Shown: positions 5,039 through 64,000 of the stretch, piece by piece
Layout: each line of letters opens with the position of its first letter
How positions within the stretch are numbered: position 1 is the first letter of the stretch
DNA from: Escherichia phage ETEC-TG
Direction: 5' to 3' (one strand)
Sequence record: OR786310.1
Length of the DNA stretch: 64,000 bases
Position numbers and translations under genes: made by a program
Notes under the pieces: model-generated
What the model was told of the DNA's origin: nothing
Seen by the model: the letters and a program-made list of their open reading frames with translations, nothing else
The model's database searches: none

Positions 5039-5119
5039 TTCGATTCTTGTCGAAACAACCAGTTTCCCGTTAGACTTACAGGATAAGAGTTCCACAATTT
5101 ATTGTGACGCTGGTTCGAA

Positions 5120-5195: not shown

Positions 5196-5333
5196 TTCAA
5201 ATCCAATTCCCGCCTCCAAATATCGCTTGCCAGCGGTATCTTTGAAGACCTTGCCTGGTTCCTTCTAAGATGGAGGGGTGCGACTCCTTAACGCACAATT
5301 ATAATAAAGCATTTCAAATTAACAGTATTTATT

Positions 5334-17571: not shown

Positions 17572-17572
17572 T

Positions 17573-17600
17573 ACGGCGGGGGTTAAGCCCCCGTTATCAA
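17573..17600 (+). terminator. hairpin terminator/attenuator after sheath gene
   Basis: ACGGCGGGGG-ttaa-GCCCCCGT followed by A/T-rich tract. Confidence 0.45.
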
Positions 17601-17617
17601 AATAAAGAGGATCTATA

Positions 17618-18097: not shown

Positions 18098-18104
18098 TAA
18101 ATAA

Positions 18105-18126
18105 AGGGCAGAAATGCCCTTTTTAT
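18105..18126 (+). terminator. Rho-independent terminator
   Basis: AGGGCA-gaaa-TGCCCT followed by TTTTTATC. Confidence 0.6.
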
Positions 18127-18142
18127 CATTAGAGAGGAAAAT

Positions 18143-18625: not shown

Positions 18626-18672
18626 CACCTGCGATTGAACATGCTATCGACACAGCAACGAAAACCCTTACT

Positions 18673-18891
18673 TTGAAGTGGTATGAGGTTATTCTTTGCA
18701 AAGTCGTTAAAGATACCTCGGAAACACTGAAAACATTGGATAACTACGGTGTAGATTATCTTTTAAAACTATATGAGTATTTAACATACGAAGAGTATGT
18801 TGAAGCCATGTATGTTAAAGACACTTCAATAAAGAGAAAACATCAAAACCAGACAAATAAAATGTCAGATTTGTTTAAGAAACTTGTTTAA
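18673..18891 (+). CDS. -1 frame extension of tail assembly chaperone (GT-like product)
   Basis: Open frame continuous with the -1 frame of the upstream chaperone; no convincing independent RBS. Confidence 0.45.
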   Translation: MKWYEVILCKVVKDTSETLKTLDNYGVDYLLKLYEYLTYEEYVEAMYVKDTSIKRKHQNQTNKMSDLFKKLV

Positions 18892-18911
18892 TCCAACACG
18901 AGGAACATACT

Positions 18912-30045: not shown

Positions 30046-32298
30046 ATGTCAACTACAATTACTAATTTACCCGAAACATCAAAAGTTAATGGTTCTGATT
30101 ACCTGGTTTTAGACCAACCTGATAAGACTGTTAAAAGCACAGTTTCCAACTTTCTTACTGACACTGGGGTGGTTTTAGCCACCCAGTTGAAAGATACAGA
30201 TGGAGCTACCAAGTATCCAGAACTTCAGATTGCACGCTGGCGAGACGAGGGAGATATCAGAGGGTGGGGCACGGAAACAAACGGTGATGTTACCGAAGCA
30301 ATCATTGAGGCGGTAGCGGCGACAAGCGGCACTATCATTGTGCCACCTGGTGACTATGTTGCCACACCTACGCTGGCCGAAGTTCCGGCTGTGCTGAAAT
30401 TGCTGTCCCGCGCTGATTTTCGTGGCAGGTTGACCATTAATCTGCCAGCTGGGACGGTCAATCTGAACGAGCAGACAGTCATAAATTCTAACAGGAGTAA
30501 TCTGTGCAAGGTCATTGGCGTAGCGCTAAACACGAGCGTTACAGGGCTTGTTTCTGTAGCTGGGTCAAGCAAGCAATATTCGATAACTCTGTCCCTGGCA
30601 GATGCCTCGCAGGTGTCAGTCGGTGACTATGCCATCTTCAGGCACGATCTGACGGGAACTGGTTTTTTCCACATACACTGCGGGGGCTGGCGGGTAACGG
30701 CTGTGTCCGGCAATAACGTGACCGTGCTCAACACATGCGTCTTGGATTCATTCCCTTCGTCAACCGTTACCGGTGGATCAGTCTCCATTATCAAGTCCGT
30801 TCTGAAATACACCGGCTGTGATGGGATTAGACCGGAGGGCGGCGACTGTATCGGAATTATTGATAATGTCGCCATCGTGGGTGATTACAACCTTGCTACC
30901 GGCGCAGGGACAATCGGTGCTCACGGCGTAATATCCTCAACACCCGTAGTAGTCACCGACGCCGCCAACGCATCCAACAACGTAGCGAATATGGCGGCAG
31001 CGCTGGCCCTGGGACGAAATATTGCAATCAGTGCCTGGGGTGAGCAAGGGCTGGCAGTGTCGGGTCGCTCTGCGCTTGTGTGTAACTTCATCGCATCCTG
31101 TGCCAACCGTAAGCGTGGTATTTATGCGGAAGGTGCTCATATACGCGGGAAATTTATGATCGCCTCCGGAAACGGAGAGGACGGCATTATTTCAGATACC
31201 ACTGGATTTGTGCAGGCTGCATATGCCGTTTGCTCGGGTAACGGATTAAACGGGTTCTGGTCAACAAACCTCTCTCTTATTGCGGCGGCAAGGGGAGTGG
31301 CTTGCTGTAACAAAACAAATGGTGTGGAGGCAAGGGGGCAGACAAGGCTCGCATTTGATCTCGGCCTTTCCTACGGAAACGTTCTAAACGGTGTCAGCGC
31401 CTCTGATGGGGGCATGATTGACTTTGATGGCGGCATGTCAAGAGACAATCTCGTTGACGGGATCGCAGCGACATACAATGCAGTAGTTGACGCGAACAAC
31501 GCCTCCAGTACCACCAATGGTCGTTACGGTACTAACGTGACCTCCGCGTGCATTATCATTTCAGGGACTGGTACTATATCTGGGAATACAGGGGCGGATG
31601 TTCGTGATAACGGCAATGGGATGGTTGTCCGACCAGACGGCACGATCTACCCATTCACTGGGGTCGCACAGGGTAATCTGTCGCTAAGAAACACCGTCAG
31701 CGGCGCGGGGGTTGACATTGTTCCTACAAGTATAGGTGACTTAATTCTGAGCTTTAAAAACTCAGCAGGCGGAACGCTTAACCCGTTATACAACTTCAAA
31801 GCCGACGGTACTCAGTACCCTCAAAATGACGCGACGCAAAGCCTTGGGCGTGCCGCTAACCGATACAATGTCGGTTTCTTCGCTGGCGGAACACAGTCAA
31901 CTTCAGATGCCACACTTAAAGACCCTATCCGGGAGTTCAATCAGGCCGAACTTAATGCAGCAATGCGAATCGCAAAAATGCTGGGTTTCTGGACATGGCT
32001 GGATGATGCCGGAAAACGGCTTCATGCAGGGACAACAGTGCAAGCGGTACTGGAGGTGCTGGAAGAAGAGGGACTCGACTGGCGTAACTATGGTTTCATC
32101 GGATTTGATGAGTGGGATGATGAATATATCCCAGTAACCATTGAGGTAGATGGCGAAGTCGTTGAAACAGGGGAAACGAAATTAGTGCGTGAGGCTGGTT
32201 CTGTCTGGCAACTGCGCGATCAGGAATTTGACCGTTTCGTTATGCGTGGACTTTCTGAAAGGCTGAGTATTATAGAAAGTAAGCTGGATTTACTGTAA
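30046..32298 (+). CDS. tailspike / receptor-binding protein with C-terminal intramolecular chaperone domain
   Basis: Gly/Asn/Val-rich beta-helix-like repeats; STSDATLKDPIREF (S620-D621) resembles the S74 chaperone autocleavage motif; body is GC-rich relative to the genome. Confidence 0.5.
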   Translation: MSTTITNLPETSKVNGSDYLVLDQPDKTVKSTVSNFLTDTGVVLATQLKDTDGATKYPELQIARWRDEGDIRGWGTETNGDVTEAIIEAVAATSGTIIVPPGDYVATPTLAEVPAVLKLLSRADFRGRLTINLPAGTVNLNEQTVINSNRSNLCKVIGVALNTSVTGLVSVAGSSKQYSITLSLADASQVSVGDYAIFRHDLTGTGFFHIHCGGWRVTAVSGNNVTVLNTCVLDSFPSSTVTGGSVSIIKSVLKYTGCDGIRPEGGDCIGIIDNVAIVGDYNLATGAGTIGAHGVISSTPVVVTDAANASNNVANMAAALALGRNIAISAWGEQGLAVSGRSALVCNFIASCANRKRGIYAEGAHIRGKFMIASGNGEDGIISDTTGFVQAAYAVCSGNGLNGFWSTNLSLIAAARGVACCNKTNGVEARGQTRLAFDLGLSYGNVLNGVSASDGGMIDFDGGMSRDNLVDGIAATYNAVVDANNASSTTNGRYGTNVTSACIIISGTGTISGNTGADVRDNGNGMVVRPDGTIYPFTGVAQGNLSLRNTVSGAGVDIVPTSIGDLILSFKNSAGGTLNPLYNFKADGTQYPQNDATQSLGRAANRYNVGFFAGGTQSTSDATLKDPIREFNQAELNAAMRIAKMLGFWTWLDDAGKRLHAGTTVQAVLEVLEEEGLDWRNYGFIGFDEWDDEYIPVTIEVDGEVVETGETKLVREAGSVWQLRDQEFDRFVMRGLSERLSIIESKLDLL

Positions 32299-51092: not shown

Positions 51093-52869
51093 AATAGTTG
51101 CTATCCGTAGGCAAATTAGCAGGATTGTTGAAATACTGCTCTTTGTCATGCAGAGTTGCAGTTCTAATGTCATAGTAAAACTGCCCTGCCGGACCAGTTT
51201 CCGAGAACTCACGGTTTTTTAGGATAAAGCAATGAGTCGTATTGCGTTCTACAGGGTCTTCAGCGGCTTTATCTCGTTCCAAAGCCAAGGTAATACCAGC
51301 GCCTTTAGCCAAGAAACTACTACCCATTGCATCGTCCTCTGTTAAGTGTTCATTGCCACCATTAGCCGATTTCTTAACGTGTGAGATGACGATAATAGTT
51401 ATAGCGTACTCTTTCATGATGCGCTTCAACCATGTTGCTAACTCTTCCTGGGCTTGAACATCCATACCAGAAAGCAAATCAGAATAAGGGTCGATAACAA
51501 GAATTGTTACTCCAAAATAGATGATCATCTCCAAAACTTTTTCTTTGATAGACTCCACATCTGCTCCACGATCATCACACACATAAAAACGTGGTGATCC
51601 ATCTTCTCTTTCGTAAAAATCTAGGATTTTTTCTTTATTCTCTTCCAAGATTTGAAATTTCTCTTCCGGTGTTTTCCTGTGTAGAGGAATATGCAGGAAC
51701 GAGGACAACAGGTTACGAGAATATTTCTTATAAGTTGCTTCCAAGGACAGAATACCCAAGGTATGTTCTGGGTGAGCAACAATAATATGTTTGGTGATCT
51801 CGTTCACCATCAAAGTTTTACCGATACTGGTCTTTGCCAGGATCACTGTAATCTCTTCCTCTACTAAACCACCACCCAGCATATTTGCAGCAACACGCAT
51901 AAAAGGAGGCAAGGTAATCATCTTGGATTCCAAGCATTCTAATGCAGCTTCATACAAGACATTAGAAGCATAAACACCTGCTGGGGTGTATAGACGAGCA
52001 CTCCAAAAAGCTTTTACGAAATCTTTTGCACGACCTTCTTCCAGATACTGATTGGCATCCTTAAGATCCATCTGCATACGGTAGACTTTGTTACGGGGCA
52101 GCACCTTAACAATATTTTCAAATGCCTCATTACCTGCTTTGTCATTATCCATGCAAACAATAATCTTCTTAAATTTTTCAAAGAAAGGATATTGTGCCTG
52201 AACTTGTTTATACATACTGGTTTCACCAGTTGTGCCACTAACTACTGCTGGAAGTTCATATTTGTTGTCCAAGTTTTCAGACAACATTTGATAAGCTGCC
52301 AGAGCATCGTGTTCACCACCTGTAATTACCACAGTATGAGAACGGTCTGCAAAACGAATTTGTCCAAAAAGATCTACATCTTTACCTACTTGACCAATAG
52401 GTTTACTGAAATCTTTAGGATGAATACGACGCTTAAAACCAACCAATTCTTTACCGATGGTAGTCGGATATAAACAACTTTCTACTACCATCTGATCCCC
52501 TTCCTGACGGTATTCATAACGAACACCATAGAAAGATGAAACTTTTTCTTTAATGCCTCGATAACCACGTGGGTTGGTTGATGTTTCTTGAACAATTTTA
52601 CGATGAATCTGTTTATTAAATTCCGAACCCACAATCTCCTCCTCTTCTTCTAAAACTTCACCATTTTCTCGTAACCATTCTACGCTAGGAATAGTGTATT
52701 CACACGCAAAGCACTTAGCACCTTTATGCTCTCCATTAGAATCTAATCCATAAACCATCAGGTTATTACGAGAGCGATCCTTGCCATTTTTCATGCAGCG
52801 CGGACAACCTGTATGCCCTTCCTTGCTAAGATCAACATCAAATCCATATTTAGTTATAATGTGCGACAC
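51091..52869 (-). CDS. primase-helicase (zinc-binding primase fused to DnaB-like helicase)
   Basis: N-terminal CPRCMKNG ... CFACEY zinc motif; Walker A ILAKTSIGKT; Walker B-like VIDPYSD. Confidence 0.75.
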   Translation of the reverse strand: MSHIITKYGFDVDLSKEGHTGCPRCMKNGKDRSRNNLMVYGLDSNGEHKGAKCFACEYTIPSVEWLRENGEVLEEEEEIVGSEFNKQIHRKIVQETSTNPRGYRGIKEKVSSFYGVRYEYRQEGDQMVVESCLYPTTIGKELVGFKRRIHPKDFSKPIGQVGKDVDLFGQIRFADRSHTVVITGGEHDALAAYQMLSENLDNKYELPAVVSGTTGETSMYKQVQAQYPFFEKFKKIIVCMDNDKAGNEAFENIVKVLPRNKVYRMQMDLKDANQYLEEGRAKDFVKAFWSARLYTPAGVYASNVLYEAALECLESKMITLPPFMRVAANMLGGGLVEEEITVILAKTSIGKTLMVNEITKHIIVAHPEHTLGILSLEATYKKYSRNLLSSFLHIPLHRKTPEEKFQILEENKEKILDFYEREDGSPRFYVCDDRGADVESIKEKVLEMIIYFGVTILVIDPYSDLLSGMDVQAQEELATWLKRIMKEYAITIIVISHVKKSANGGNEHLTEDDAMGSSFLAKGAGITLALERDKAAEDPVERNTTHCFILKNREFSETGPAGQFYYDIRTATLHDKEQYFNNPANLPTDSNY

Positions 52870-52881
52870 TTTGTTCTCCTG

Positions 52882-53160
52882 TTAAAATGGTTCGTTAGTC
52901 TCCATCATATATTCTGCTTCTAGTTCTTCCATATGCTTTCTAAATTGGAAAGCAATTTCTGCTACAGTTACATTTAAATCTTTTTCAAAAACTTCTGTAG
53001 AGCCTTCATAAAAACGAATACCGTCAATTAAAAGCCCTCCGTGGTAATCCCAATCACTTTCACGAGAAAGCGGGTTAGGCTCTTCATAATAGTAATCCAC
53101 CTCCACAACTAAGGCTTTCCCGTTACAAGTGGTGTATTCAAAATCAAAAGTGTTAATCAT
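52882..53160 (-). CDS. hypothetical protein
   Basis: ORF track. Confidence 0.35.
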   Translation of the reverse strand: MINTFDFEYTTCNGKALVVEVDYYYEEPNPLSRESDWDYHGGLLIDGIRFYEGSTEVFEKDLNVTVAEIAFQFRKHMEELEAEYMMETNEPF

Positions 53161-54104
53161 TATAGCTCCTCAAATAAAAGTCTACGACGCTCATTCAACA
53201 CATCAATGTGATAATGAGTCCTGACATACTTAGCTAATGCTAATCCTTTCTCCATGCAAACATCGGGAGCACTTAATAAGTATTCCGTAATATCTTTCCA
53301 CTCGGAAGGTGTTTCAGCAAAGAATAACAAATCTTTAAACTCTTGCGTATGATAATTCTCACGAGGAGAACAGATCAAAGGTAAACCCTTAGCACCTGCC
53401 TCAAGAATTTTAAGATTGCTTTTTGCATTATTAAACACGTTATCAATCAATGGCGCAAGACTGATTTGATGACCATCGTAAGATTCCATGTAGTTGGCAT
53501 ATGGTCTTACACCTTCATAAACACAAGTTGGTGCTACATTTTCTCTGATTACAGACCATTCACGACTACTTAAAACTTCAGAATCCCTACGAAAACCACA
53601 TATTGTAAGATCTTTACCAAAATCGGGCAAGATAGCCAAGTCTTGTTTATGTGTTTCACTTCCAGCCCAGACTAATGGAGTTTTGGAGTAGCGATCACGG
53701 GTCAACACAAATTGACCTTCATCGTAAGGAAGTCCATTAGGGATTATGTGCACATTATCATTGTATTGTGAAAGTTCAACTTGCAAAGCAGGTGTCGTAG
53801 TTGTAACAAGATCGCTGTGCTCTAAAAACCATTTTAAATGTTCACGAATACCTGATTCAAAAATACCTTCTAACATGTGTCCTTTTGGAATAACTAAAGA
53901 GTCATCCAAATCCATAACCATTTTAAAGCCTAGGTTTTTAAGGGCTAAAAAGCCCTGTTTACCTTTTGTTGGCACCCCGTTAAAAACGAAAACGTTGTGT
54001 TTAGGTTGTGAAGAGAACTGCCTTGAGTAAGGCAGCACTACCCTATGGAAATCGCAAACACTATAATTGATTCCGTTACGATTGTCAAGAATTATTTGTC
54101 CCAT
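53160..54104 (-). CDS. glycosyltransferase, GT-B type (paralog 1)
   Basis: C-terminal KSNLKILEAGAKGLPLICS resembles the GT1/GT4 nucleotide-sugar motif; paralogous to 54112-55059. Confidence 0.45.
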   Translation of the reverse strand: MGQIILDNRNGINYSVCDFHRVVLPYSRQFSSQPKHNVFVFNGVPTKGKQGFLALKNLGFKMVMDLDDSLVIPKGHMLEGIFESGIREHLKWFLEHSDLVTTTTPALQVELSQYNDNVHIIPNGLPYDEGQFVLTRDRYSKTPLVWAGSETHKQDLAILPDFGKDLTICGFRRDSEVLSSREWSVIRENVAPTCVYEGVRPYANYMESYDGHQISLAPLIDNVFNNAKSNLKILEAGAKGLPLICSPRENYHTQEFKDLLFFAETPSEWKDITEYLLSAPDVCMEKGLALAKYVRTHYHIDVLNERRRLLFEEL

Positions 54105-54111
54105 ACTTCAC

Positions 54112-55059
54112 CTACAAACTTTCAATAACCTGGCGTCGCAACTCATTTGCATCTGCCAGATTATAATGTGTTCGAACATGTTCAGCCAAGAACAAGCCAC
54201 GATCTTCCCGATAGTTTGGATTGCGAAGAAGCTTAACAATTTCGTAATGCCATTCTGCTTTGTTCTCTGCGTAAGCAACAGCACGAGCATCTACAGGGTT
54301 AAAATAAGGTAATACTTTAGAACAAACAATCGGAATACCTTTTGCTCCAGCTTCCAGGATTTTGAGATTACTTTTACAATTATTAAAATCATTATCTACC
54401 AAAGGAGCTATAGCAATAGCATGACTTTCGTAAACACTCATGTAATTATCTAAATCTTTTACAGCGGCTTTATATTTGGCATTTGGTAAATTTCTGCGAA
54501 TCTTAATCCATTCTTGTCCCGTGATGCTCTGTGATGCTTCATATCCCGCAATAGTAAGAAGTTCATCATCGAAAGTATTAGAGACTAGTCGTAAATCTGG
54601 TTCGTGACTAGCACCGCCAGCCCATACAACAGGGGTACCGGATGAACGATCATTTGACAAAGTGAATTGTCCACTATCAAAAGGAAGTGCATTTCGGATC
54701 ACAACAACATTCCTATTTAAGTGACGGATCTTATATGCCAAATATTCTGTAGTCACAATAACCACATCAGCAAGCTTAACCATAGCTACAATAGCATGAG
54801 TGTTTGACTCGTATAGATTTGCTAAATAATGTTCTGGATTAAGTTGGTAGAAATCATCTAAATCTACAACAATCTTAACACCTTGACGTTTCAAAGATAA
54901 AACGTATTCTGCACCTTTAGAGTGGATACGGTTAAACACAACAACATCTTTCTTAGGTTGAAGATTATGGTTGTTAAATGGCATAACAATACGATGATAG
55001 TCACAACCGCTGTGAGGTTTTGCATCAATTTTTAGTTTAGACCATTTTTTATTTGACAT
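54112..55059 (-). CDS. glycosyltransferase, GT-B type (paralog 2)
   Basis: KSNLKILEAGAKGIPIVCS; shares CDYHR, DLDD and WAG motifs with paralog 1. Confidence 0.45.
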   Translation of the reverse strand: MSNKKWSKLKIDAKPHSGCDYHRIVMPFNNHNLQPKKDVVVFNRIHSKGAEYVLSLKRQGVKIVVDLDDFYQLNPEHYLANLYESNTHAIVAMVKLADVVIVTTEYLAYKIRHLNRNVVVIRNALPFDSGQFTLSNDRSSGTPVVWAGGASHEPDLRLVSNTFDDELLTIAGYEASQSITGQEWIKIRRNLPNAKYKAAVKDLDNYMSVYESHAIAIAPLVDNDFNNCKSNLKILEAGAKGIPIVCSKVLPYFNPVDARAVAYAENKAEWHYEIVKLLRNPNYREDRGLFLAEHVRTHYNLADANELRRQVIESL

Positions 55060-55732
55060 GTGCTAGTGCCTCCTCATAGGAAATTCGGATTTTCCCATTT
55101 TTAATATCCTCTAAAGATGCTTTATATTCTTCCCAGTTAATCCCGATAGCAGCTTCTTTCTCTTCTTTTGTCAGATTAGCAAAAGGCATAGGATTGTTTC
55201 CAAAAACATCGTCTGGGTGGATATAAGCCATGATACGAAGTGGACAAGGTGTTGCCTGAATACCATGATTCAAACCAGCAGCTTGTAAACGGTGTCCCCA
55301 TTCAGCATCTTCAAAACCATAACCATGAGTGTAAGGACGGAAATAACCCATCTTCTCAACAACGGCACGAGAATACATTGCAAATTGACACATTGCAAGT
55401 TCCCAGAGAATAACTTCTCCTTTGCTTCCAACAACTTTATCTTTGAAGTACTCCGGCATACCAAAGAAATCCCATCCTCCAGAAACAGCTTGATCTACAA
55501 AGTATGTTTCCCATCCTTCCATGACTGGGTAGCAATCGTCGTCAAAAATAAACCAATAATCATAACCTTCTTCATAAAACTGGTGCATAAGTTCATTCCT
55601 GGCATAAGCTACACCTTTACGATCTGGATCGTTGAATACTCGAAAATCTGCACGTGGATCTGTTACAAGGTAGTCTTTAAGTGGACGGACACCTACAGTG
55701 ATAACACCCACTCCGATTTTAATATTTTCCAT
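55049..55732 (-). CDS. glycosyltransferase, GT-A fold (family 2-like)
   Basis: YARNELMHQFYEEGYDYWFIFDDDCYP (DxD motif) and GFEDAEWGHRL second motif. Confidence 0.5.
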   Translation of the reverse strand: MENIKIGVGVITVGVRPLKDYLVTDPRADFRVFNDPDRKGVAYARNELMHQFYEEGYDYWFIFDDDCYPVMEGWETYFVDQAVSGGWDFFGMPEYFKDKVVGSKGEVILWELAMCQFAMYSRAVVEKMGYFRPYTHGYGFEDAEWGHRLQAAGLNHGIQATPCPLRIMAYIHPDDVFGNNPMPFANLTKEEKEAAIGINWEEYKASLEDIKNGKIRISYEEALAHVK

Positions 55733-55740
55733 TTTCTCTC

Positions 55741-56304
55741 CTAAATAGTTTTACTGTGATCGTGACAGTGTAATAAATGATGTATAGACCGTTGAGGATT
55801 TGTTTGACCTAATCTGTAAATGTGAAACAGATACATTCCCCGCATCAATCCTAACCTCTTTCCTTTTTCATGTAAAGTGTGAGAGAAAATTAAGTCGAAT
55901 TGGATAGATTTTTCTTCGAAAGGAATTTCATTCCACAATGATTTTCTAAAAAGCAAAAAGAAACCTGCCAGAGGTGTTCCGAAAGGAACTTCTTCAACAC
56001 TCACTTTATGATATTCTCTTGCAATCTTAGCATATTCTATATGGTTTAGAATATCTGGATCATCGTTAATTTGGTTAGAGAAAAGCTGATAACCACTGCC
56101 TAACCTGTTACAAGTTGCACCTATTACATCAAAAGGCGGGTTTGACATAACAAGCTCTTCAAGCATAGATGGTTGATCAGGTAGGAGGAACATTGTATCG
56201 GTATCTCTTAAACACACCCAACTATCATCTGGAAGAACGGCAATGGCTTCATTGATAGCCTTGCCGATATTTCCTGTCAGATAGGGAGTAATATAATAAA
56301 TCAT
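55741..56304 (-). CDS. nucleotide-sugar transferase-like protein (GT-A-like, DxD)
   Basis: N-terminal ITPY...GNIGKAINEAIAVLPDDSWVCLRDTDT pattern. Confidence 0.35.
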   Translation of the reverse strand: MIYYITPYLTGNIGKAINEAIAVLPDDSWVCLRDTDTMFLLPDQPSMLEELVMSNPPFDVIGATCNRLGSGYQLFSNQINDDPDILNHIEYAKIAREYHKVSVEEVPFGTPLAGFFLLFRKSLWNEIPFEEKSIQFDLIFSHTLHEKGKRLGLMRGMYLFHIYRLGQTNPQRSIHHLLHCHDHSKTI

Positions 56305-56321
56305 TCTCCCCCTCCGTTATA

Positions 56322-56513
56322 TTAACTGTCGGCTACAATCCCGCGTTTAATCATTTCCTGTTGGATTTGGATGACACGATCTCGTGCTTCCATGTATTCT
56401 TTAAAAGATTCTTGAAGATGGTCACGAGCTACGTCTCGTAGCTTAATCAGTTTGTCGTTTGTCACTTCTTGAAGAGAGATTTCGCCAGTTTCATTGGTCC
56501 CAAGCGTTTTCAT
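56322..56513 (-). CDS. hypothetical small protein
   Basis: ORF track. Confidence 0.3.
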   Translation of the reverse strand: MKTLGTNETGEISLQEVTNDKLIKLRDVARDHLQESFKEYMEARDRVIQIQQEMIKRGIVADS

Positions 56514-56721
56514 TTACAACCTCCTTAATAGCTACTGCACAGTTCTTACAAATACATTGACCTTTGTTCTTAGAAATTTCAATGTAAGGTTCATTTTCGT
56601 TTTCTCCGCGTCGTGAGTCGTATATTACTGTATTGAAGCAGACAACGCAAATGTTTTTAATAACGACATATTTTTGCACTTTCTGTTTAGTGCGAAAATT
56701 GACTTCAATGACTTCTCCCAT
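56491..56721 (-). CDS. small Cys-rich protein (start trimmed to ATG at 56721)
   Basis: GGGGAGA RBS; ATGA start/stop overlap with upstream gene; CVVC and CICKNC motifs. Confidence 0.35.
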   Translation of the reverse strand: MGEVIEVNFRTKQKVQKYVVIKNICVVCFNTVIYDSRRGENENEPYIEISKNKGQCICKNCAVAIKEVVNENAWDQ

Positions 56722-57005
56722 CAGTGAATCTCCCCTAAAATGTTGTTTTGAGACATTACTGCGGAGCATTCTACAGCATCATGAGTCCTTGCAAAACGCT
56801 CCCACAATACAGCATCTACTTTAAGAACCATACAAGGATAAATACTGTCGTTGATCATGTCAATGCTATATTTATCTACATCCTTTTCATCTTCCATAAA
56901 CAAAGTAGCATATGCTTCTAAATGCTTACGGGTGTAGTATACATCCTCTTCAGTAAGACCGACAACCAGGTAACTTGCTACAACAACAGTATTATCTTCT
57001 TGCAT
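56721..57005 (-). CDS. hypothetical protein (start trimmed to ATG at 57005)
   Basis: GGGGAG RBS; start follows the SleB-like gene stop. Confidence 0.35.
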   Translation of the reverse strand: MQEDNTVVVASYLVVGLTEEDVYYTRKHLEAYATLFMEDEKDVDKYSIDMINDSIYPCMVLKVDAVLWERFARTHDAVECSAVMSQNNILGEIH

Positions 57006-57006
57006 T

Positions 57007-57528
57007 TTAACTCCCCTTTGGTAGATAGAAACCATGCACTTTATCTCGATAAACAAGACGCATATCACGTTCCCAGTGTGTCCTTATATTCCGTTTCTTG
57101 AAGTATAGAGCACCTTTAGTAACATCTAAAACAGACCGCAATTCAGGAAAATGTTTCTCTAAATAAAGTAAACGCTCCGCTATTGCTTTTGCTTCTTGCC
57201 ACTTATCTTTCTCTGTTACGTTAAAAGTTTTCGCATATGAGAATTGCCCTTTCTGGAACAAGACTCCTCTGACTGTGTTAGGGAAGTAGGTATCATTTCT
57301 TCTGTTGATTACCACATTCCCAACGGCATTCATTCCTTTTTTACCCAGACCTCGACCTTCTGCGTAAATTGCACAAGCTAATAGAATTTTATCATTATAT
57401 TGCTTTGTACATTTGTGAACTACTTTAGCGGTTTTTACGTTTGCAGCTTCGGCTTTCGCCACAACAGGTGTAAATGTAAAAGCAGTTAAGGATAGTAACG
57501 CAACTGTTACAAAGTTTTTTATCAGCAA
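57007..57528 (-). CDS. SleB/CwlJ-type cell wall hydrolase with N-terminal signal/anchor (candidate endolysin)
   Basis: Hydrophobic N-terminus; LLACAIYAEGRG motif of SleB-type hydrolases; TTG start after AGGAGG RBS. Confidence 0.6.
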   Translation of the reverse strand: MLIKNFVTVALLSLTAFTFTPVVAKAEAANVKTAKVVHKCTKQYNDKILLACAIYAEGRGLGKKGMNAVGNVVINRRNDTYFPNTVRGVLFQKGQFSYAKTFNVTEKDKWQEAKAIAERLLYLEKHFPELRSVLDVTKGALYFKKRNIRTHWERDMRLVYRDKVHGFYLPKGS

Positions 57529-57560
57529 ATTTTGCCTCCTTTTTAAGTTAACGAATTTCT

Positions 57561-57589
57561 AGTATAACACGATAGAGGCTTTATTGCAA
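57561..57589 (-). promoter_or_regulatory. sigma70-like extended -10 promoter (minus strand)
   Basis: On the transcript strand TTGCAA - 17 nt - TGtTATACT, upstream of the hydrolase RBS. Confidence 0.45.
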
Positions 57590-57609
57590 GAGGGGGATTT
57601 CTCCCCCTC
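57590..57609 (-). other. GAGGGGGA/TCCCCCTC stem-loop downstream of TerD gene
   Basis: Perfect 8-bp G/C stem; similar hairpin at 39752-39770. Confidence 0.4.
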
Positions 57610-57627
57610 AAAATCATTTGTTAATTA

Positions 57628-58230
57628 TTATGGACATTCATACCATTCTTTTTTACCACCGAAGGCCATCACCACATCGCAAATATCCAGACCAGCTTTA
57701 CCTACACCATATGCTTTCAGCTTCCATTCCCCATCTTCACGAACCAAGGAAGCCACGTGGCAGATTGTGTTACCAGCTACTTCAGGAGCCAGGAAGTCAA
57801 AATCCAGAATTTCCACATTGCGTTCGGAGTCAAAGATTTTAAGCATACCTTCAGAAGCATGACCAAAACGTTTCAGACCTGTATCATCATCAATGGTCAG
57901 AACAAAGGCAATCTCTTGTGCATCAGGAGAGATTTTAGCCAGAGTAATATCAATCTGCTCCATGCTGCCAGTCCCATCACGAACATCGTCACCAGCGAAG
58001 GTAGAACGTTCAGGATCAAACTTGTTAGCGTAGCAAACCAGATGACGTGCAGACAGCATTTCAGGATTGCCAGCGGCATTATGACGACAAACCAGTGCAC
58101 TTACATCCAGATCCAGTTTAGAATCAGATTTCCAAGAGAATTCCAGGCGCAGTTCTTTCAGAGCCGGAGCAACTTTCTTCAGGGAAATTTTTTCGCTAGA
58201 GCCTTTTTTCAGGGAAATTTTATCAGTCAT
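57628..58230 (-). CDS. terD: TerD-family protein (tellurium resistance / stress protein domain)
   Basis: Aligns by eye to E. coli TerD: N-terminal ISLKK repeats, DLDVSALVC, FVLTIDD, GEWKLKAYGVG; host-like codon usage. Confidence 0.75.
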   Translation of the reverse strand: MTDKISLKKGSSEKISLKKVAPALKELRLEFSWKSDSKLDLDVSALVCRHNAAGNPEMLSARHLVCYANKFDPERSTFAGDDVRDGTGSMEQIDITLAKISPDAQEIAFVLTIDDDTGLKRFGHASEGMLKIFDSERNVEILDFDFLAPEVAGNTICHVASLVREDGEWKLKAYGVGKAGLDICDVVMAFGGKKEWYECP

Positions 58231-58245
58231 CTTTTGTCTCCTCTA

Positions 58246-58515
58246 TTATTTAAGTGTAATACCAGTTACAGTCAATTCTACTTCCAAAAGCTTAGATGTG
58301 TTTTGGATTGATACTAATTGTGCATGATGGTTTAGTTCTACAGCGGAATAATCATTCTCCCCATCGTCTACTTTTAAATAAACAATGATTTCACTAAGGT
58401 CTAAACCATTTTCGTCAAATGCATTTTCATAGACGAAAGTATCTCCTACATCCAAATCTTTAATGGTAAGGCATCGTTTATTTACTTTTTGCTCATCAAT
58501 TTCGAAGTTTAACAC
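58246..58515 (-). CDS. small conserved protein, paralog of 59537-59815
   Basis: Shares DLDVGDTF and TVTGITLK motifs with the paralog. Confidence 0.4.
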   Translation of the reverse strand: MLNFEIDEQKVNKRCLTIKDLDVGDTFVYENAFDENGLDLSEIIVYLKVDDGENDYSAVELNHHAQLVSIQNTSKLLEVELTVTGITLK

Positions 58516-58744
58516 TTCTTCCTCCTAATGTTATCTCCGGTTTGTATATACGAAGAATTATAGCATTTTCATTTTCTTTGTCAACCCATTCTTCATAATC
58601 GGGCCATACATGAATCTCTACTCTACTTACAATATCTTCCATTCGCACAGTCCCAATGAAATACTCTTTGAGACTGCGCATAATGAAAGCTTCTCTCTCG
58701 CGCCAATAATTTTCTACGACTTGAGAGGCAAGCTCGTCGATCAT
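58496..58744 (-). CDS. hypothetical small protein
   Basis: ORF track; coupled to neighbours. Confidence 0.3.
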   Translation of the reverse strand: MIDELASQVVENYWREREAFIMRSLKEYFIGTVRMEDIVSRVEIHVWPDYEEWVDKENENAIILRIYKPEITLGGRSVKLRN

Positions 58745-59535
58745 TTTTTAGCACCTACTTTAACAACCCACTCTCCGAACTCTTCAGATAAAAGTTTGTC
58801 ATAAAGCTCTGAATCTGTCAAGTCTAAATCTTTAATGCCAATAAAACCAACATTATCATAAGCATTTGCCAGTTCTTTCAGGAAGCCAAACTTCTCATTA
58901 CCAACGCCAACCATGAACCAATAAATAGGTTTATTCTTATTCTCTTCAATAAGACGACGAACAGCACTAGGATCACCATTCTCACCATCCGTCTGGAAGA
59001 ATACAACACCAGGGGTAACGTCAGCACCTGGTTCAGATACAGCTACAACTTTTTCACGCTCTACAGACACTGTTTCAGTTTTACCAAGCAGACGATTAAA
59101 GAAGCCTTTCTTTGGAGCCTCCTCTTGTACCACTTGTTTAGTGGTAATATATTTGGTAACAGTGCCAAAATACTCATCGTAGATATCTGCCATTACAGGG
59201 GCGTAATTTGTTCCACCTCCGATACGAACATTGCGCATACATTTACCAACATAGTCATCGTAAACGTCTGCTGTTGCTGGAGTAAGCTCTTGGGAACTCG
59301 TATTAAAGGCCCACATATCAATTTGTTGATTATCGTCGAACAGCATACCAAAAGGAAGCAGTTTACCTACAAAATCACTCACTACCCCACTAGAATATAG
59401 ACCATGCATACTACCAGAAATATCTAGAGCACATGCTACACGAAGAACAATCTTACCTTCATTCAGGTTCTTATTCTTTTTCAGAGAGAAAGCAAGGTTT
59501 TCTTGACGTTTTTTCAGGCTGATTTTCTCGGACAT
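58741..59535 (-). CDS. vWA-domain protein with TerD-like N-terminal ISLKK segment (TerY-like)
   Basis: MIDAS motif DISGSM, downstream GGGTNY and TDGENGD; N-terminus MSEKISLKK parallels TerD N-terminus. Confidence 0.6.
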   Translation of the reverse strand: MSEKISLKKRQENLAFSLKKNKNLNEGKIVLRVACALDISGSMHGLYSSGVVSDFVGKLLPFGMLFDDNQQIDMWAFNTSSQELTPATADVYDDYVGKCMRNVRIGGGTNYAPVMADIYDEYFGTVTKYITTKQVVQEEAPKKGFFNRLLGKTETVSVEREKVVAVSEPGADVTPGVVFFQTDGENGDPSAVRRLIEENKNKPIYWFMVGVGNEKFGFLKELANAYDNVGFIGIKDLDLTDSELYDKLLSEEFGEWVVKVGAKK

Positions 59536-59536
59536 A

Positions 59537-59815
59537 TTATTTCTCCTTCTTAAGTGTAATATTGGTAACTTCTAAATCTACTTCCACCATATTTGTATCT
59601 GGTGGGATGCAATGAGTATAGCCTCGTTGTGCTAGTGATCCATTAATACAAATCGCACTGTTTGTGGAATTTTTAATGAACACCAAGTTATGGTAGGTAT
59701 CCAACCCTGCGTCTTTATAGGCATCATAATACATGAATGTGGCCCCTACGTCAAGATCTTCGAAAGCAATAGGTAAATCCTGACTTTTTTCTTCTTGAAT
59801 ATTGAATCTAAACAT
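59537..59815 (-). CDS. small conserved protein, paralog of 58246-58515 (start at ATG 59815)
   Basis: GAGGAGG RBS before the internal Met; DLDVGATF and VDLEVTNITLKK align with paralog. Confidence 0.4.
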   Translation of the reverse strand: MFRFNIQEEKSQDLPIAFEDLDVGATFMYYDAYKDAGLDTYHNLVFIKNSTNSAICINGSLAQRGYTHCIPPDTNMVEVDLEVTNITLKKEK

Positions 59816-60371
59816 GCATACCTCCTCTACCAATTTTGAAGCCCAAATCGTAAGCTTCCTTAGTGATCTTTTGTAACTCACTTATAGGAAGTGTTACAAG
59901 AGGATCATCTTCTTCAATTTCCATCTTGTCATCTTCTGTTTCAATGAGAGTATTATGCACTTTGTGATAAGGGTTGTCAACACGTTTAAACTTATTCTTT
60001 TCTGTGCTGAAAAAACAATCTGGATCTTCTTCACCATCACCCCAACCTTGGTTAGGATCTCCGTCAGATTGTTCTGTAGGGATTTCACCTGTAAAGTACT
60101 CTTCCAGCACCATAGCAATACCGTCCCTTGGATTTGAGGAATGCATTAAATCACAAACCTTACCCCAATCCATAGCCCATTCGAACCGTTCACGAACGCC
60201 ATTTTCATCCTCCTTTCCAGAGAAAACACAACCATAACTATCATAGTTGCCATACATCTCTTCAATAACAACACCGTCCTTCAAAAGAAAGAGATAACAA
60301 GGTGATCCGTCGAAAGAAGTAGAAAGGGCAGCTTTGCCCGATTCTTTGCACAAAAAGCTAAAACAACCCAT
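59808..60371 (-). CDS. hypothetical protein (acidic, Cys-containing)
   Basis: ORF track; in the Ter-like operon. Confidence 0.35.
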   Translation of the reverse strand: MGCFSFLCKESGKAALSTSFDGSPCYLFLLKDGVVIEEMYGNYDSYGCVFSGKEDENGVRERFEWAMDWGKVCDLMHSSNPRDGIAMVLEEYFTGEIPTEQSDGDPNQGWGDGEEDPDCFFSTEKNKFKRVDNPYHKVHNTLIETEDDKMEIEEDDPLVTLPISELQKITKEAYDLGFKIGRGGMHV

Positions 60372-60769
60372 TACAAACCCTCCTTCAGATTATCAAGAGC
60401 TACAGTGGTTTCACAAAATTCTCCATAAGCTTTATGATGTTCCAGAAAAGCTTCGGGTCCACCCCAGTCATTATCTTGTGTATTCCAGCCATCTATAAAA
60501 GCATCTTCAATGATTGTGATCAGTTCCTGTCGAGTCAACGTAATGGTATCAGGTTTCTGCGTAGTTTCCACACGGAACCCTGGTTCTTCATAAAAACCTT
60601 TAGTTATAATGGATTCTAACTCTTCTGCATCACAGAGGAAGTAGCCACAAAGATAACACCAACCGTCATCATCTTTCATTACTTCATAAACTTCACCACT
60701 TGCCAAATTAGTGAAAAGAGTAGGGTTTGTTACTGTAAGTTTTAAAAGAATACCTGTTGGATTATACAT
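60371..60769 (-). CDS. hypothetical protein
   Basis: ORF track. Confidence 0.35.
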   Translation of the reverse strand: MYNPTGILLKLTVTNPTLFTNLASGEVYEVMKDDDGWCYLCGYFLCDAEELESIITKGFYEEPGFRVETTQKPDTITLTRQELITIIEDAFIDGWNTQDNDWGGPEAFLEHHKAYGEFCETTVALDNLKEGL

Positions 60770-60934
60770 CTTCTTCCTCCTCTAAAATATGGAACCCGTA
60801 ATTACAATAATCCTGAAAGGTTTCGTGTGCAAGATCTTCTATATCCTCTTGAGACATATCATCTTCAATTTCGATATCCACAACCTCATTGCATCCACAC
60901 CAAGCAGTTTCAATATTCACTCGTAATATTTTCA

Positions 60935-61132
60935 TTACTCCTCCTCCTCATTGAAGTCAATATCTGCAAGGAGTTCGAATTTACGGAAGTTACGACAACC
61001 TTCATAAATATAACAATCACGACAAACTGCTAGAACACTTGGGGGATATATGCCTCCCATCGGTGCGAATCGTTTTTCGTCATCATAACGGACACCAATG
61101 TCTTCATCAATTATATAGATACGGATTCTCAT
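60935..61132 (-). CDS. small Cys-rich protein
   Basis: CRDCYIYEGC motif; acidic C-terminus. Confidence 0.3.
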   Translation of the reverse strand: MRIRIYIIDEDIGVRYDDEKRFAPMGGIYPPSVLAVCRDCYIYEGCRNFRKFELLADIDFNEEEE

Positions 61133-62241
61133 TTACCAAGCCCTCGTTTCACAGCAGCTACCATCCCGTCTTCCAGAGATTGAACTTCATTAATATAATC
61201 AACACGAGCAGCACGGGCTTCCGTATTGATGCGGTTAGTTTCTTCCAGCATCTTAACCAAGTTTTCCTGATCGTGACGCAGAGTTTCAATATCCAACACT
61301 TGACGGTTAGCCAGTGCTGCTGCTTCGATCTGATTCTGTGTGGCAAGATCGCTACCCAGTTTAATTGCCAGGTTAAATTCATCAAGAACGTTATTCTGCG
61401 TCTCTGCTGCTTTCATTTGACGTAAGCTCTCGATATACATTGAGAAGTTAGCAGAGTAAGCAGGAATAACATTATTTACTATGTTACGCGCAGATCGCAT
61501 TAAGCTTGCAGAAACTTTTTGCATACCTTGTACACGCGGTCCCATTTGGACACACAGTAGGCGCAATGCTTTTAAATCTGCAATACGAATCTCCAGAAGA
61601 TCCAAAGTATCTCGGATCACTTGTCGCTGTTCTACTGCATCTTCTGGAAGAGCAGCCAAAGCTTGTTCTTCTTTTTCATAGGTTGCTGTTAGAAGCTGCA
61701 TATCTCGGTTCAAACTTGCAGCATATTGTCCAATAGCTTGATGTAGCTTTTCAAGATATACCAAGGAATCTTCTTCTTTGCGAATATCCATTTGAAGGTT
61801 CTTTACCAACTCTTCAATACGGTTATTAACATTATCAAACTCCCCGAACAGGTCTTCTTTCATACCCATAACTTTTTTAATGAGTTTAGTAATACCCTTG
61901 CTTTGTTTAATAGAGTTTGGATCAAGTTGTTTTGCCTGTTTAATCAAAGCTGTAAGTCGTTCACTCATCTGATCGCCTTGATTACTACGTTGATGTTTTA
62001 ACACCTCGGCATTCAAGGAACGCAAGGTTGTTCCTGCCTCTGCCCCAATCTCTTCAATCTCTTGTCGGGTCATAGAAGGCAAAACTGGAACTTCTTGCGG
62101 TGCCGCTGGTGCATAAACAGGACTGGCATCTAACACGCTTGGAGCGAATACAGATTTACTTGCATCTGTTGTTGCAGCGAATACACTCATTTCAGACTTC
62201 TTCTGACCACCAGTAGCTGCTTTTAAAAATGGACTTGTCAT
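61129..62241 (-). CDS. TelA/KlaB-like helical protein (tentative)
   Basis: 370 aa, predominantly helical, same operon as TerD and vWA proteins; family assignment from size, composition and context only. Confidence 0.35.
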   Translation of the reverse strand: MTSPFLKAATGGQKKSEMSVFAATTDASKSVFAPSVLDASPVYAPAAPQEVPVLPSMTRQEIEEIGAEAGTTLRSLNAEVLKHQRSNQGDQMSERLTALIKQAKQLDPNSIKQSKGITKLIKKVMGMKEDLFGEFDNVNNRIEELVKNLQMDIRKEEDSLVYLEKLHQAIGQYAASLNRDMQLLTATYEKEEQALAALPEDAVEQRQVIRDTLDLLEIRIADLKALRLLCVQMGPRVQGMQKVSASLMRSARNIVNNVIPAYSANFSMYIESLRQMKAAETQNNVLDEFNLAIKLGSDLATQNQIEAAALANRQVLDIETLRHDQENLVKMLEETNRINTEARAARVDYINEVQSLEDGMVAAVKRGLGK

Positions 62242-62828
62242 TCTTCATTCTCCTCTTCTGCATCTCTTATATATGGTGAAACACCGTACTCTTTAGCTAC
62301 TTTAACCCAATCATCCCATTTATACAACCATAATTTTCCTTCAGTTCCTTCTTTATCTGATTTCAACCACATGTTAGGTTGCTTGCCTGGGTACATGCGA
62401 TTAGGTTTACGATTATAACCTCTAACACATCTTGTCGCAAACCTATCTACCAGAACAAGAACATATTTATACTCGTGGTTCAACGGCTCTTTGGAAGTGG
62501 CTTTAGGATTAGCCCCTAACTCTGCTGCCAGTTTTTGCCAATGAGCACCGTGCCTACTAAACTTACCCATACAACCATCAATAGCGTGAGCAATTTCGTG
62601 CTTCATTGTATCCACGATCATATCTCTTGTAGAGTTCTTATGCAAGTGCCAATTTACAACAACAATTTTATCTCGGTAGTTGCACCAACCGAAAGAGTTA
62701 TTCACTTTGTTTCTAACACAAGCTTTATATCCTGCTTCACGTAACATGTTGTAGTAAACAGGAAAATCTTCTTTTATTTCCTGCATCACTTCCCACCACA
62801 AGAGTTGCAAGTCTCTCTCGGTATGCAT
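62238..62828 (-). CDS. zinc metallopeptidase-like protein (HExxH, SprT-like)
   Basis: TMKHEIAHAIDG...H motif; acidic C-terminus. Confidence 0.4.
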   Translation of the reverse strand: MHTERDLQLLWWEVMQEIKEDFPVYYNMLREAGYKACVRNKVNNSFGWCNYRDKIVVVNWHLHKNSTRDMIVDTMKHEIAHAIDGCMGKFSRHGAHWQKLAAELGANPKATSKEPLNHEYKYVLVLVDRFATRCVRGYNRKPNRMYPGKQPNMWLKSDKEGTEGKLWLYKWDDWVKVAKEYGVSPYIRDAEEENEE

Positions 62829-62830
62829 AC

Positions 62831-63424
62831 TTACACCTTAAAAGCGAAATGCGTGGTCGTGGCTTCAAAATCAGGGCCAGATAAACTTGCACTGAAATCT
62901 GAAATATTTGTAATTAAAAAGCTTTTATGCATACCTAACACAGCCACGCTTTCAATATCTTCTACTAACATTTCAATCATGTTAGAAACATGGCTGAACG
63001 TATAGTTTTGTTTTTTGATGGTGTAGAAAGAAAGATTCCCACCTGCTGTATAAGATACTTCTTCAAAATCTTTAATCGTATACTGTGTCCCATCAGTAAA
63101 GAAAATGGTAGCTTTATTAGTAGCACGTTTCTTGTTTTTTGGTCCTTTTTTACGCTTATTGCGAGTAGGAAAACCATTTGGAAATACCGTAGCTACAAAT
63201 TCTTCAGGAGAAACCTCCTTACCGAAATCATAACCATAAGAAACAGCATCTATAAACTCGTCGTCTTCATTTTTAAAATAATGAAAATAGGGCCAATTTG
63301 AGAGATTATCGAGCATCTTATGCTCATCCACAGCAGAGAACGTATCCCTCAAAGCGCGTGTAATTTGCAAAGCATTAGGCAAACTTTTAACACCTGTAAT
63401 GGAAGTACGGATAGAAATTGTCAT
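62831..63424 (-). CDS. hypothetical protein
   Basis: ORF track. Confidence 0.35.
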   Translation of the reverse strand: MTISIRTSITGVKSLPNALQITRALRDTFSAVDEHKMLDNLSNWPYFHYFKNEDDEFIDAVSYGYDFGKEVSPEEFVATVFPNGFPTRNKRKKGPKNKKRATNKATIFFTDGTQYTIKDFEEVSYTAGGNLSFYTIKKQNYTFSHVSNMIEMLVEDIESVAVLGMHKSFLITNISDFSASLSGPDFEATTTHFAFKV

Positions 63425-63438
63425 TGTTTTTCTCCTTA

Positions 63439-63876
63439 TTAACGTCGCTTGCTACGAGATGAACTCTTTTTACTTAAAGGGCTATTGTAAGATTTACGAG
63501 TTGTATAGCTACTATTTGTTTTAAAAGTTTGTCTCGGCTTTTCATAAGTTTTTATCTCTTGTTTAGGCTTACCATAAAAATTAGTTTTCGGTTTAGGTGT
63601 ATTATAATGCTTATTAATAATCGTTCTGTTATCGTTATAATCCCCACTGCTACGATTACTACCGCCACTCATCATATGCCCTAACAACATACCTGTAGCA
63701 AACTCACCAACACCGCTACTACTAGAACCGCCACCATTGTTGATAATAGTTGTATCTCCGTCAGATCCTTGTTGAGCGTATTGTTGAGGAGGTTGTTGGT
63801 ATTGTGCAGGATTTGTTTCATCCTCGCAAGCTGTTAAAAAGATACAACCAATTAAAATCAGGGCTAGTTTTTTCAT
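63439..63876 (-). CDS. lipoprotein with glycine-zipper region (start at ATG 63876)
   Basis: Signal peptide MKKLALILIGCIFLTAC with lipobox; Gly/Ser-rich GGGSSSSGVGEFATGMLLGHMMSGG; basic C-terminus. Confidence 0.5.
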   Translation of the reverse strand: MKKLALILIGCIFLTACEDETNPAQYQQPPQQYAQQGSDGDTTIINNGGGSSSSGVGEFATGMLLGHMMSGGSNRSSGDYNDNRTIINKHYNTPKPKTNFYGKPKQEIKTYEKPRQTFKTNSSYTTRKSYNSPLSKKSSSRSKRR

Positions 63877-64000
63877 ATTTGCTTTCCTCGTTTTGGCTAT
63901 TAATACATCTGTGTTTGAAATCTCCAGAGAAGCAATAAAGTTGCTCTCCATCTCGGTATAAACTCACTTTACTGCCGTTGATTACGCTTGTCAATACAAA

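Follow-up and report, generated by a model that had tools for sequence, protein, structure and literature searches.

The tellurite-resistance (Ter) genes of the lytic Escherichia phage ETEC-TG and a predicted separate transcription unit for TerD

We analysed a group of genes related to bacterial tellurite-resistance (Ter) clusters in Escherichia phage ETEC-TG, using a 64,000-nucleotide window of sequence record OR786310.1. A preliminary description of this DNA had placed a leftward operon at 57628-62828, containing proteins of the TerD, von Willebrand factor A (vWA), TelA and metallopeptidase types. Judged from sequence comparison, this region is almost certainly the downstream half of a near-complete Ter system that has long resided in the phage subfamily Stephanstirmvirinae. 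The observation is real and correctly located, but it is not new, since phage-borne Ter genes are already known. New here are a predicted promoter and hairpin unit around the TerD gene, the codon adaptation of this gene, and a shortened loop in its product. The SprT-like metallopeptidase and a 187-aa open reading frame (ORF) of the region are not Ter-specific.

Membership in the Ter group was judged by the scheme of Anantharaman, Iyer and Aravind (TerD, TerC, TelA, vWA), and families were assigned by Pfam matches exceeding the curated cut-offs. Three Ter genes lie within the window:

57628-58230, minus strand: TerD-family protein, 200 aa (PF02342, 98.9 bits with a cut-off of 25.3, E 3.2e-28).
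58741-59535, minus strand: vWA-TerF-like protein, 264 aa (PF10138, 130 bits, E 1.6e-37).
61129-62241, minus strand: TelA-family protein, 370 aa (PF05816, 115.7 bits, E 3.2e-33, profile positions 13-327 of 332).

Profile hidden Markov model (HMM) searches, which had been suggested as a check, thus recovered TerD, vWA and TelA, and also the SprT family described below, each where it had been placed. The minus-strand genes from 63424 to 57628 abut or overlap, with spacings of -20 to +15 nt, as expected of the leftward operon proposed earlier, and each is preceded by a Shine-Dalgarno sequence. The extent of the module was underestimated: the genes between 57628 and 62828 had been placed correctly, but the module is larger and runs past the end of the window. 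The proposed proximity to replication genes holds as well. Genes for primase/helicase, a Dam-type methylase and DNA polymerase lie beyond TerD, and the other flank, seen in relatives, is formed by nrdDG.

The missing half can be read from relatives. In phage SKA64, which is 98.8% identical, the leftward block continues past the position of the window end with TerC, Macro, phosphoribosyltransferase (PRTase) and HAD genes, followed by nrdG and nrdD. The TerC membrane protein (PF03741, E 1e-38) is encoded on the same strand approximately 2 kb past the window end. The PRTase is of the Ter type (PRTase_3, PF15610, E 7.7e-42). The Macro match has E 7e-5, and the HAD match is weak (E 4e-4, below the cut-off). 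The system is described as near-complete because TerC, PRTase, HAD and Macro follow in the same block of relatives.

The window comes from a member of the genus Phapecoctavirus (phAPEC8-like). Its 5.2-kb region shares 99.6% identity with that of Escherichia phage dw-ec and 98-99% with those of about 60 other Phapecoctavirus genomes, including phAPEC8, ZCKP1 and SKA64. The phi92-like phages of Justusliebigvirus and relatives from Klebsiella show 60-90% identity. The matching records are assigned to Caudoviricetes, subfamily Stephanstirmvirinae. None of 5,426 complete E. coli genomes contains a match to the 5.2-kb region, which fits a strictly lytic phage and argues against recent origin from the host.

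Gene order was compared in Paula (phi92-like), 05F01, phiWec181 and ECO340P2. The core common to the subfamily consists of TerC, TelA, a protein of family phrog_11278, vWA, TerD and a SleB-type hydrolase. TerC is present in Paula and phiWec181, and DUF475 takes its place in 05F01. TerD and TelA are near-universal in the subfamily and, like vWA, are under strong purifying selection (dN/dS, the ratio of non-synonymous to synonymous substitution rates, 0.01-0.14). TerD with at least 80% identity was found in 131 phage records, TelA with at least 60% identity in 131, and the major head protein with at least 80% identity in 132; these counts come from separate searches and thus show near-universality rather than a record-by-record match. 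The dN/dS values, calculated pairwise by the Nei-Gojobori method against ECO340P2, phiWec181 and Paula, are 0.03-0.12 for TerD, 0.07-0.14 for vWA and 0.01-0.10 for TelA. The four-gene core of TelA, vWA, TerC or DUF475, and TerD is found also in unrelated large lytic phages, namely Otagovirus phiPsa267 and Caulobacter phage CcrSC.

Candidate transcription signals of the module are as follows:

58557-58584, minus strand: perfect sigma-70 promoter TTGACA-16-TATAAT with a TGn extended -10, inside an 82-aa ORF.
57590-57609, minus strand: 8-bp perfect G+C-rich hairpin GAGGGGGA-gaaa-TCCCCCTC, 18 nt past the TerD stop codon.
57589-57561, minus strand: promoter-like site TTGCAA-17-TATACT, ahead of the SleB-like gene.
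59952-59980, minus strand: sigma-70-like promoter TTGACA-17-CATAAT (11 of 12 positions), upstream of phrog_11278 copy A and vWA.

The predicted promoter at 58557-58584 is the only perfect match in the 64 kb, where 0.13 are expected by chance. It is located upstream of phrog_11278 copy B and TerD. The site recurs in SKA64 and ECO340P2, and also in the diverged phiWec181, whose version of the surrounding ORF is only 61% identical. In Paula, TTGACT-16-TAAAAT is found directly upstream of TerD. The hairpin at 57590-57609 probably closes the TerD transcription unit; in Paula, the corresponding position downstream of TerD is occupied by a canonical terminator, GCGCCC-ttcg-GGGCGC with a T-run behind it. 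Flanked in this way by a perfect consensus promoter and a hairpin beyond the stop codon, TerD is predicted to form a transcription unit of its own. The second candidate promoter, at 59952-59980, is kept in Paula, and also in phiWec181, where the ORF that contains it is lacking and the site falls into intergenic space.

Sigma-70-like matches are enriched at 52000-64000, where 51 were counted as compared with 33.9 +/- 5.5 in shuffled sequences, mostly on the minus strand. This enrichment fits transcription of the region by the host polymerase.

The codon usage of TerD, described earlier as host-like and typical of high expression, indeed stands out. With Sharp-Li E. coli weights, its codon adaptation index (CAI) is 0.545, the third highest among the 74 genes of the window (mean 0.286, standard deviation 0.089, so that TerD lies 2.9 standard deviations above the mean). 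The major head protein (0.575) and the head decoration protein (0.569) rank first, which is a reasonable internal control, and the tail sheath has 0.42. In Paula, TerD has the highest CAI of its locus (0.529, with a locus mean of 0.301), and in 05F01 it is second. Taken together with the promoter, this suggests that TerD would be expressed early, by the host polymerase and at a very high level. The bias does not imply recent transfer from a host, because the G+C content of third codon positions (0.36) is typical of the phage, bacterial TerD shares only about 30% identity with the protein, and E. coli genomes contain no match; recent acquisition was rejected as its source on these grounds.

The TerD protein aligns over its full length with the solved Klebsiella TerD (PDB 2KXT, E 1.5e-15), and also with 3IBZ. 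It is predicted to be soluble, and no transmembrane segments were seen. The canonical Ca2+-binding loop of TerD is reportedly GDN(R/L)TG(E/A)GDGDDE (Pan et al. 2011). In the alignment, the corresponding acidic loop of the ETEC-TG protein reads GDDVRDGTG---SMEQ, being three residues shorter, with three acidic positions replaced. The TerDs of this subfamily keep the DLD motif, and the TerDs of other phages and of bacteria retain the canonical acidic loop. Some phage records label the phage protein 'YceD / general stress protein 16U'. In phi92-like phages TerD is followed by a second gene of 200 aa; it was considered as a TerD paralogue and rejected, having no Pfam match and only 14% identity.

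The metal-ion-dependent adhesion site (MIDAS) of the vWA protein had been noted as intact, and comparison with homologues bears this out. Homologues numbered 62. In an alignment of 16 homologues (29-75% identity), D38, S42, T109 and D183 of the site D38-x-S40-x-S42, T109, D183 are invariant, and S40 is nearly so. The same protein had been called TerY-like. However, its type is that of the C-terminal domain of TerF, and the PADLOC model of TerY-P did not match. Likewise, the ISLKK sequence at its N-terminus, taken earlier as TerD-like, belongs to a conserved N-terminal motif of PF10138, [IV]SLxK...SLxK, with L7, K9, L18 and K20 almost invariant, and aligns with the TerD-vWA linker of TerF-type fusions. 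In fusion proteins it sits in the linker after TerD. Despite some resemblance to the first strand of TerD, it is not the remnant of a TerD domain. The protein also carries an insert of about 45 residues with a conserved KKGFF motif. The gene ranks ninth of 74 by CAI. No transmembrane segments were seen in the protein, and a sequence search of the PDB with it returned nothing. Its nearest 'bacterial' homologue (38% identity) comes from a prophage-like stretch of Neobacillus with the gene order TerD-vWA-TerC-Prs-NAMPT.

TelA belongs to PHROG 5890, 'tellurite resistance'. As the preliminary description had it, the protein is predicted to be helical: the AlphaFold2 model (pLDDT, predicted local distance difference test, 75) is all-alpha with very long helices, and the N-terminal region of about 55 residues is disordered. 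No transmembrane segments were seen, and a sequence search of the PDB returned nothing.

The gene immediately upstream of TelA is a different case:

62238-62828, minus strand: SprT-like zincin, 196 aa (PF10263, 36.7 bits with a cut-off of 25.6, E 4.2e-9).

The HExxH motif reported previously is present as HEIAH at residues 77-81, followed by SRHGAHW, in keeping with the downstream His ligand of the family. The stop of this gene overlaps the TelA start by 4 nt, and its dN/dS is 0-0.04. The only addition from an NCBIfam search was the SprT equivalog at 21 bits as compared with a cut-off of 175; the protein thus belongs to the family but is not orthologous to E. coli SprT. The gene is present in Phapecoctavirus and 05F01 and absent at this position in Paula and other phi92-like phages, so its inclusion in the set was not upheld. 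We consider it an accessory neighbour of the Ter genes and not part of their core; it and the 187-aa gene are classed as neighbours because they are not consistent members across the subfamily.

Phage Ter genes have been noticed before, and the set is not an unnoticed feature. GenBank records that are 98-99% identical already carry the annotations 'tellurite resistance', 'TelA-like', 'TerD family' and 'SprT-like', and four papers deal with Ter genes in these or other lytic phages (PMC6141743, PMC8386662, PMC11162368, PMC7824862). The paper on ZCKP1 lists 'four genes related to tellurite resistance', for which it suggests a part in resisting colicins and in protection from superinfection (PMC6141743). 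The paper on phiKp34 names terC, a terF-type vWA gene, terD and telA (PMC8386662). Jumbo phages and 'related smaller tailed phages' were shown to carry Ter systems by Iyer et al. (2021), who propose superinfection exclusion and competition with superinfecting phages (PMC7824862). What stands of the earlier interpretation is a Ter-like set in a lytic myophage; its novelty does not, nor does SprT as a consistent member. Published Stephanstirmvirinae (phAPEC8, phi92, ZCKP1, SKA64, Paula) have 98-99.6% identical DNA within Phapecoctavirus, and the gene order in phi92-like phages is the same. Neither the promoter/terminator unit of TerD nor its codon bias, the pair of paralogous phrog_11278 genes or the shortened loop is described in their records, which otherwise show no substantive difference.

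The bacterial terZABCDEF clusters (IncHI2 plasmid R478, the E. coli O157 island, Klebsiella virulence plasmids) share with the phage TerD, TerC, a TerF-type vWA, PRTase and HAD. However, the phage has a single TerD, with about 30% identity to that of Klebsiella, in place of the paralogues TerZ/A/D/E/F, its vWA protein stands alone and is not fused to TerD, TelA is included, the Ca2+-loop is shortened, no TerB was found in the block, and the carrier is a lytic phage. The envelope-stress operon yceCDEFGH of B. subtilis encodes the TerD paralogues YceC/D/E, the TerC-family protein MeeF/YceF and the TelA-family protein YceH. It combines TerD, TerC and TelA in a single operon, as does the phage. 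In contrast to it, the phage adds a TerF-type vWA together with PRTase/HAD/Macro, identity is low, and the predicted promoters are early phage ones rather than those of stress sigma factors. The same core of TelA, vWA-TerF-like, TerC/DUF475 and TerD occurs in other lytic phages (the Otagovirus phiPsa374 group, Caulobacter/Brevundimonas jumbo phages, Acinetobacter phage ME3). The TelA identity to these is only 22-25%, and their core is compact and contiguous, whereas here it extends over approximately 9 kb and is interleaved with the phrog_11278 pair, the SprT and 187-aa genes and a lipoprotein gene. The TerY-P triad (TerY vWA, kinase, phosphatase), which is linked to phage defence, has in common with the phage a vWA from a Ter neighbourhood. 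However, the vWA here is TerF-type, PADLOC matched no ORF of the module, and no Pfam domains of Ser/Thr kinases or PP2C phosphatases were found in the block.

The most likely role of the module, to which we give a probability of about 0.45, is that the inner membrane and envelope of the infected cell are protected until lysis, through superinfection exclusion and tolerance of pore formers. The Ter genes would be transcribed early by the host RNA polymerase, and TerC would insert in the inner membrane. On its cytoplasmic face would assemble TerD, presumably very abundant, the vWA protein, which may bind in a metal-dependent manner via its MIDAS, and the long helical TelA. None of TerD, vWA and TelA has a transmembrane segment, so that they could be anchored in the membrane only through TerC. 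The TerC-centred assembly would then alter the handling of divalent cations and the state of the envelope, and the insults resisted would be chiefly superinfecting phages and pore formers. This role is proposed by analogy, because bacterial ter clusters inhibit phages and make cells resistant to pore-forming colicins; the cluster of R478 provides resistance to tellurite, phages and colicins, according to Whelan 1995 as cited in PMC8386662. The module also has an envelope context, being accompanied by a lipoprotein, a signal-bearing SleB hydrolase and, on its flank, four glycosyltransferases.

Several points weigh against envelope protection. TerC lies outside the window, and its presence in ETEC-TG is inferred from relatives. 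No TerB domain was found among the 28 ORFs of the block scanned against Pfam; TerB is common in Ter systems, although it is not universal. A PADLOC scan of ten ORFs of the module gave no meaningful match to a defence system. The fold search with TelA returned as structural neighbours only generic coiled-coil proteins, which are non-specific and give no structural support for a particular membrane mechanism. In this lineage of TerD, the shortening of the loop by three residues and the loss of three acidic ones make canonical metal binding uncertain. Finally, the paper on phi92 and vKMB37 notes the phage Ter genes and calls their function unknown (PMC11162368), and no transcriptomic, proteomic or genetic experiments were found in the literature on phage Ter genes.

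A role in metal homeostasis is possible but rather unlikely. A TerC-centred complex, with TerD and vWA as cytoplasmic metal-binding partners, would export or chaperone Mn2+/Zn2+/Ca2+ and either metalate exported enzymes, such as those of the SleB type, or avert intoxication during the reprogramming of nucleotide metabolism. TerC-family proteins, including MeeF/YceF of B. subtilis, metalate exoenzymes during secretion (PMC10550928), and terC of K. pneumoniae contributes to resistance to phage, tellurite, Zn and Mn (PMC12054061). The intact MIDAS of the vWA protein and the signal-bearing hydrolase as a conserved downstream neighbour of TerD agree with such a role. However, the Ca2+-loop of TerD is degenerate in this lineage, and metal homeostasis offers no reason for the predicted capsid-level expression of TerD and leaves unexplained why TelA is repeatedly retained with the set in unrelated lytic phages. 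We regard as equally doubtful a function in counter-defence, an idea of the preliminary description that can be made specific as a complex keeping the inner membrane intact and energised under attack by membrane-permeabilising abortive-infection effectors. It would agree with the resistance of bacterial ter to pore-forming colicins (Whelan 1995, as cited in PMC8386662), with predicted early and strong expression, which fits pre-emptive protection, and with the universal presence of the module, under purifying selection, in phages of many wild E. coli strains. The same features are equally compatible with superinfection exclusion, and no similarity to known anti-defence proteins was found. Less probable again is the combined proposal of a pre-emptive device against abortive infection, made within minutes from host-type promoters and with TerD at capsid-like levels, that would keep the inner membrane sealed and energised under attack by pore-forming effectors, colicins and superinfecting phages alike; TerD, with its truncated metal loop, and phrog_11278 would have been re-tuned for it.

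A link to a metabolite is improbable. PRTase_3, HAD and Macro would make or degrade a nucleoside-like or ADP-ribose-like compound, TerD would bind it as a sensor or sponge, and vWA and TelA would be the effectors. PRTase_3 (E 8e-42), HAD and Macro indeed lie in the same leftward block of relatives, genes for phosphoribosyl pyrophosphate (PRPP) synthetase and NAMPT adjoin the Ter core in the Neobacillus element and lie approximately 3.3 kb upstream of TelA in phiPsa267, and TerB and TerD were described as ligand sensors by Iyer et al. (2021) (PMC7824862). The very high predicted level of TerD and its altered metal loop would fit a stoichiometric binder. However, PRTase and HAD have no counterpart in the Ter regions of 05F01, CcrSC and phiPsa267, which argues that the Ter core works without them. 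We also know of no ligand for any TerD, which counts against this scheme. That the genes are mere passengers, a relic of an old transfer from bacteria with no role in lytic growth, is very unlikely in view of the signals of selection and expression. In its favour, E. coli K-12 serves as a laboratory plating host for these phages, and a phenotype of the Ter genes has never been reported. It is contradicted by dN/dS values of 0.01-0.14, by the presence of the genes in about 131 of 132 subfamily genomes, by conserved promoters and strong codon adaptation, and by only about 30% identity to bacterial TerD without any match in E. coli genomes.

Phage Ter cores are repeatedly found near enzymes of phosphoribosyl transfer (L001, SKA64, 17115-19078, off the window; L004, 9600-11928; L007, 1-3714). 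The neighbours differ by lineage: phAPEC8-like phages have PRTase_3/HAD/Macro, whereas the prophage-like element of Neobacillus and the Pseudomonas phage phiPsa267 have PRPP synthetase with NAMPT. This proximity may link Ter to metabolism of the NAD or ADP-ribose type.

How Ter and TelA systems work has been debated for some thirty years, although their effects on phages, colicins and tellurite are clear. What remains of interest in the phage genes is this mechanism and the way in which the expression of TerD is arranged. The phage system offers a clean and genetically tractable setting. To our knowledge, E. coli K-12, the usual laboratory host, has no ter cluster of its own, so that the effect of the complex on a cell can be studied directly. 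Should the role be superinfection exclusion or tolerance of membrane-directed defence, the module would represent a new class of phage-encoded protective systems, and a protective role would bear on the host range of therapeutic phAPEC8-like and phi92-like phages.

Other genes of the block and its surroundings are as follows:

59537-59815, minus strand: phrog_11278 copy A, 92 aa from M23 of a longer ORF (PHROG E 7e-50).
58246-58515, minus strand: phrog_11278 copy B, 89 aa, directly upstream of TerD (PHROG E 7e-45).
58496-58744, minus strand: 82-aa ORF, phrog_22387, Phapecoctavirus-specific, with the candidate TerD promoter in its 3' part.
59808-60371, minus strand: 187-aa protein, phrog_14928, interleaved in the module.
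60371-61132, minus strand: three small ORFs (132, 57 and 65 aa) between TelA and the 187-aa gene, with variable conservation across the subfamily.
62831-63424, minus strand: 197-aa ORF, phrog_27550, with which the tightly packed block opens inside the window.
63439-63876, minus strand: predicted lipoprotein, 145 aa, with a MKKLALILIGCIFLTAC lipobox (LTAC after MKKLALILIGCIF); SKA64 has an annotated coding sequence of the same length.
57007-57528, minus strand: SleB-type cell-wall hydrolase (PF07486, E 1.9e-17).

Copy A of phrog_11278 ends approximately 1 nt before the vWA start and was found in all Stephanstirmvirinae loci examined. Copy B is its paralogue, confined to Phapecoctavirus, with dN/dS 0.19. 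A search with an HMM of the family found no members outside this subfamily, and co-occurrence of the family with Ter genes elsewhere was rejected accordingly.

The 187-aa protein has a conserved N-terminal domain of about 115 aa with MGCFSxxC and DPNQGWG motifs. The family is large (224 representative clusters, 424 hits). The fold is well predicted and has no informative neighbour in the PDB or BFVD. The gene was considered as a new Ter component and rejected, being absent in phiWec181, and three distant members occur in early regions of phages without Ter genes. Among the small ORFs, that of 57 aa matches DUF7167 at 23.2 bits, just under the cut-off of 24.4.

In the predicted lipoprotein at 63439-63876, a middle part rich in Gly and Ser is followed by a basic C-terminus that looks repeat-like. 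Its gene lies between that of TerC, off the window, and the TelA block. Lipoproteins of phages frequently act in superinfection exclusion. The SleB-type hydrolase has a TTG start and a signal-like hydrophobic segment at the N-terminus (KD19 1.94 at residue 6). Its gene immediately follows the probable TerD terminator in all subfamily loci and has the promoter-like site of its own listed above. Between the Ter block and the primase/helicase, four consecutive glycosyltransferase genes occupy 53160-56304 on the minus strand, two of them GT1 and WbuB-like, one GT2 and one unclassified. Candidate targets are cell-surface polysaccharide or phage DNA.

Elsewhere in the window, a tail-fibre or tail-spike gene of 750 aa (30046-32298, plus strand) has a G+C content of about 52% as compared with about 38% in the rest of the phage, and its product ends in a Peptidase_S74 intramolecular-chaperone domain. 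It looks like a horizontally acquired receptor-binding module. Ten tRNA genes are located at 3193-5218 on the plus strand: two for Met, and one each for Arg-TCT, Ser-GCT, Asn, Thr-TGT, Gly-TCC, Gln-TTG, Pro-TGG and Ile-GAT.

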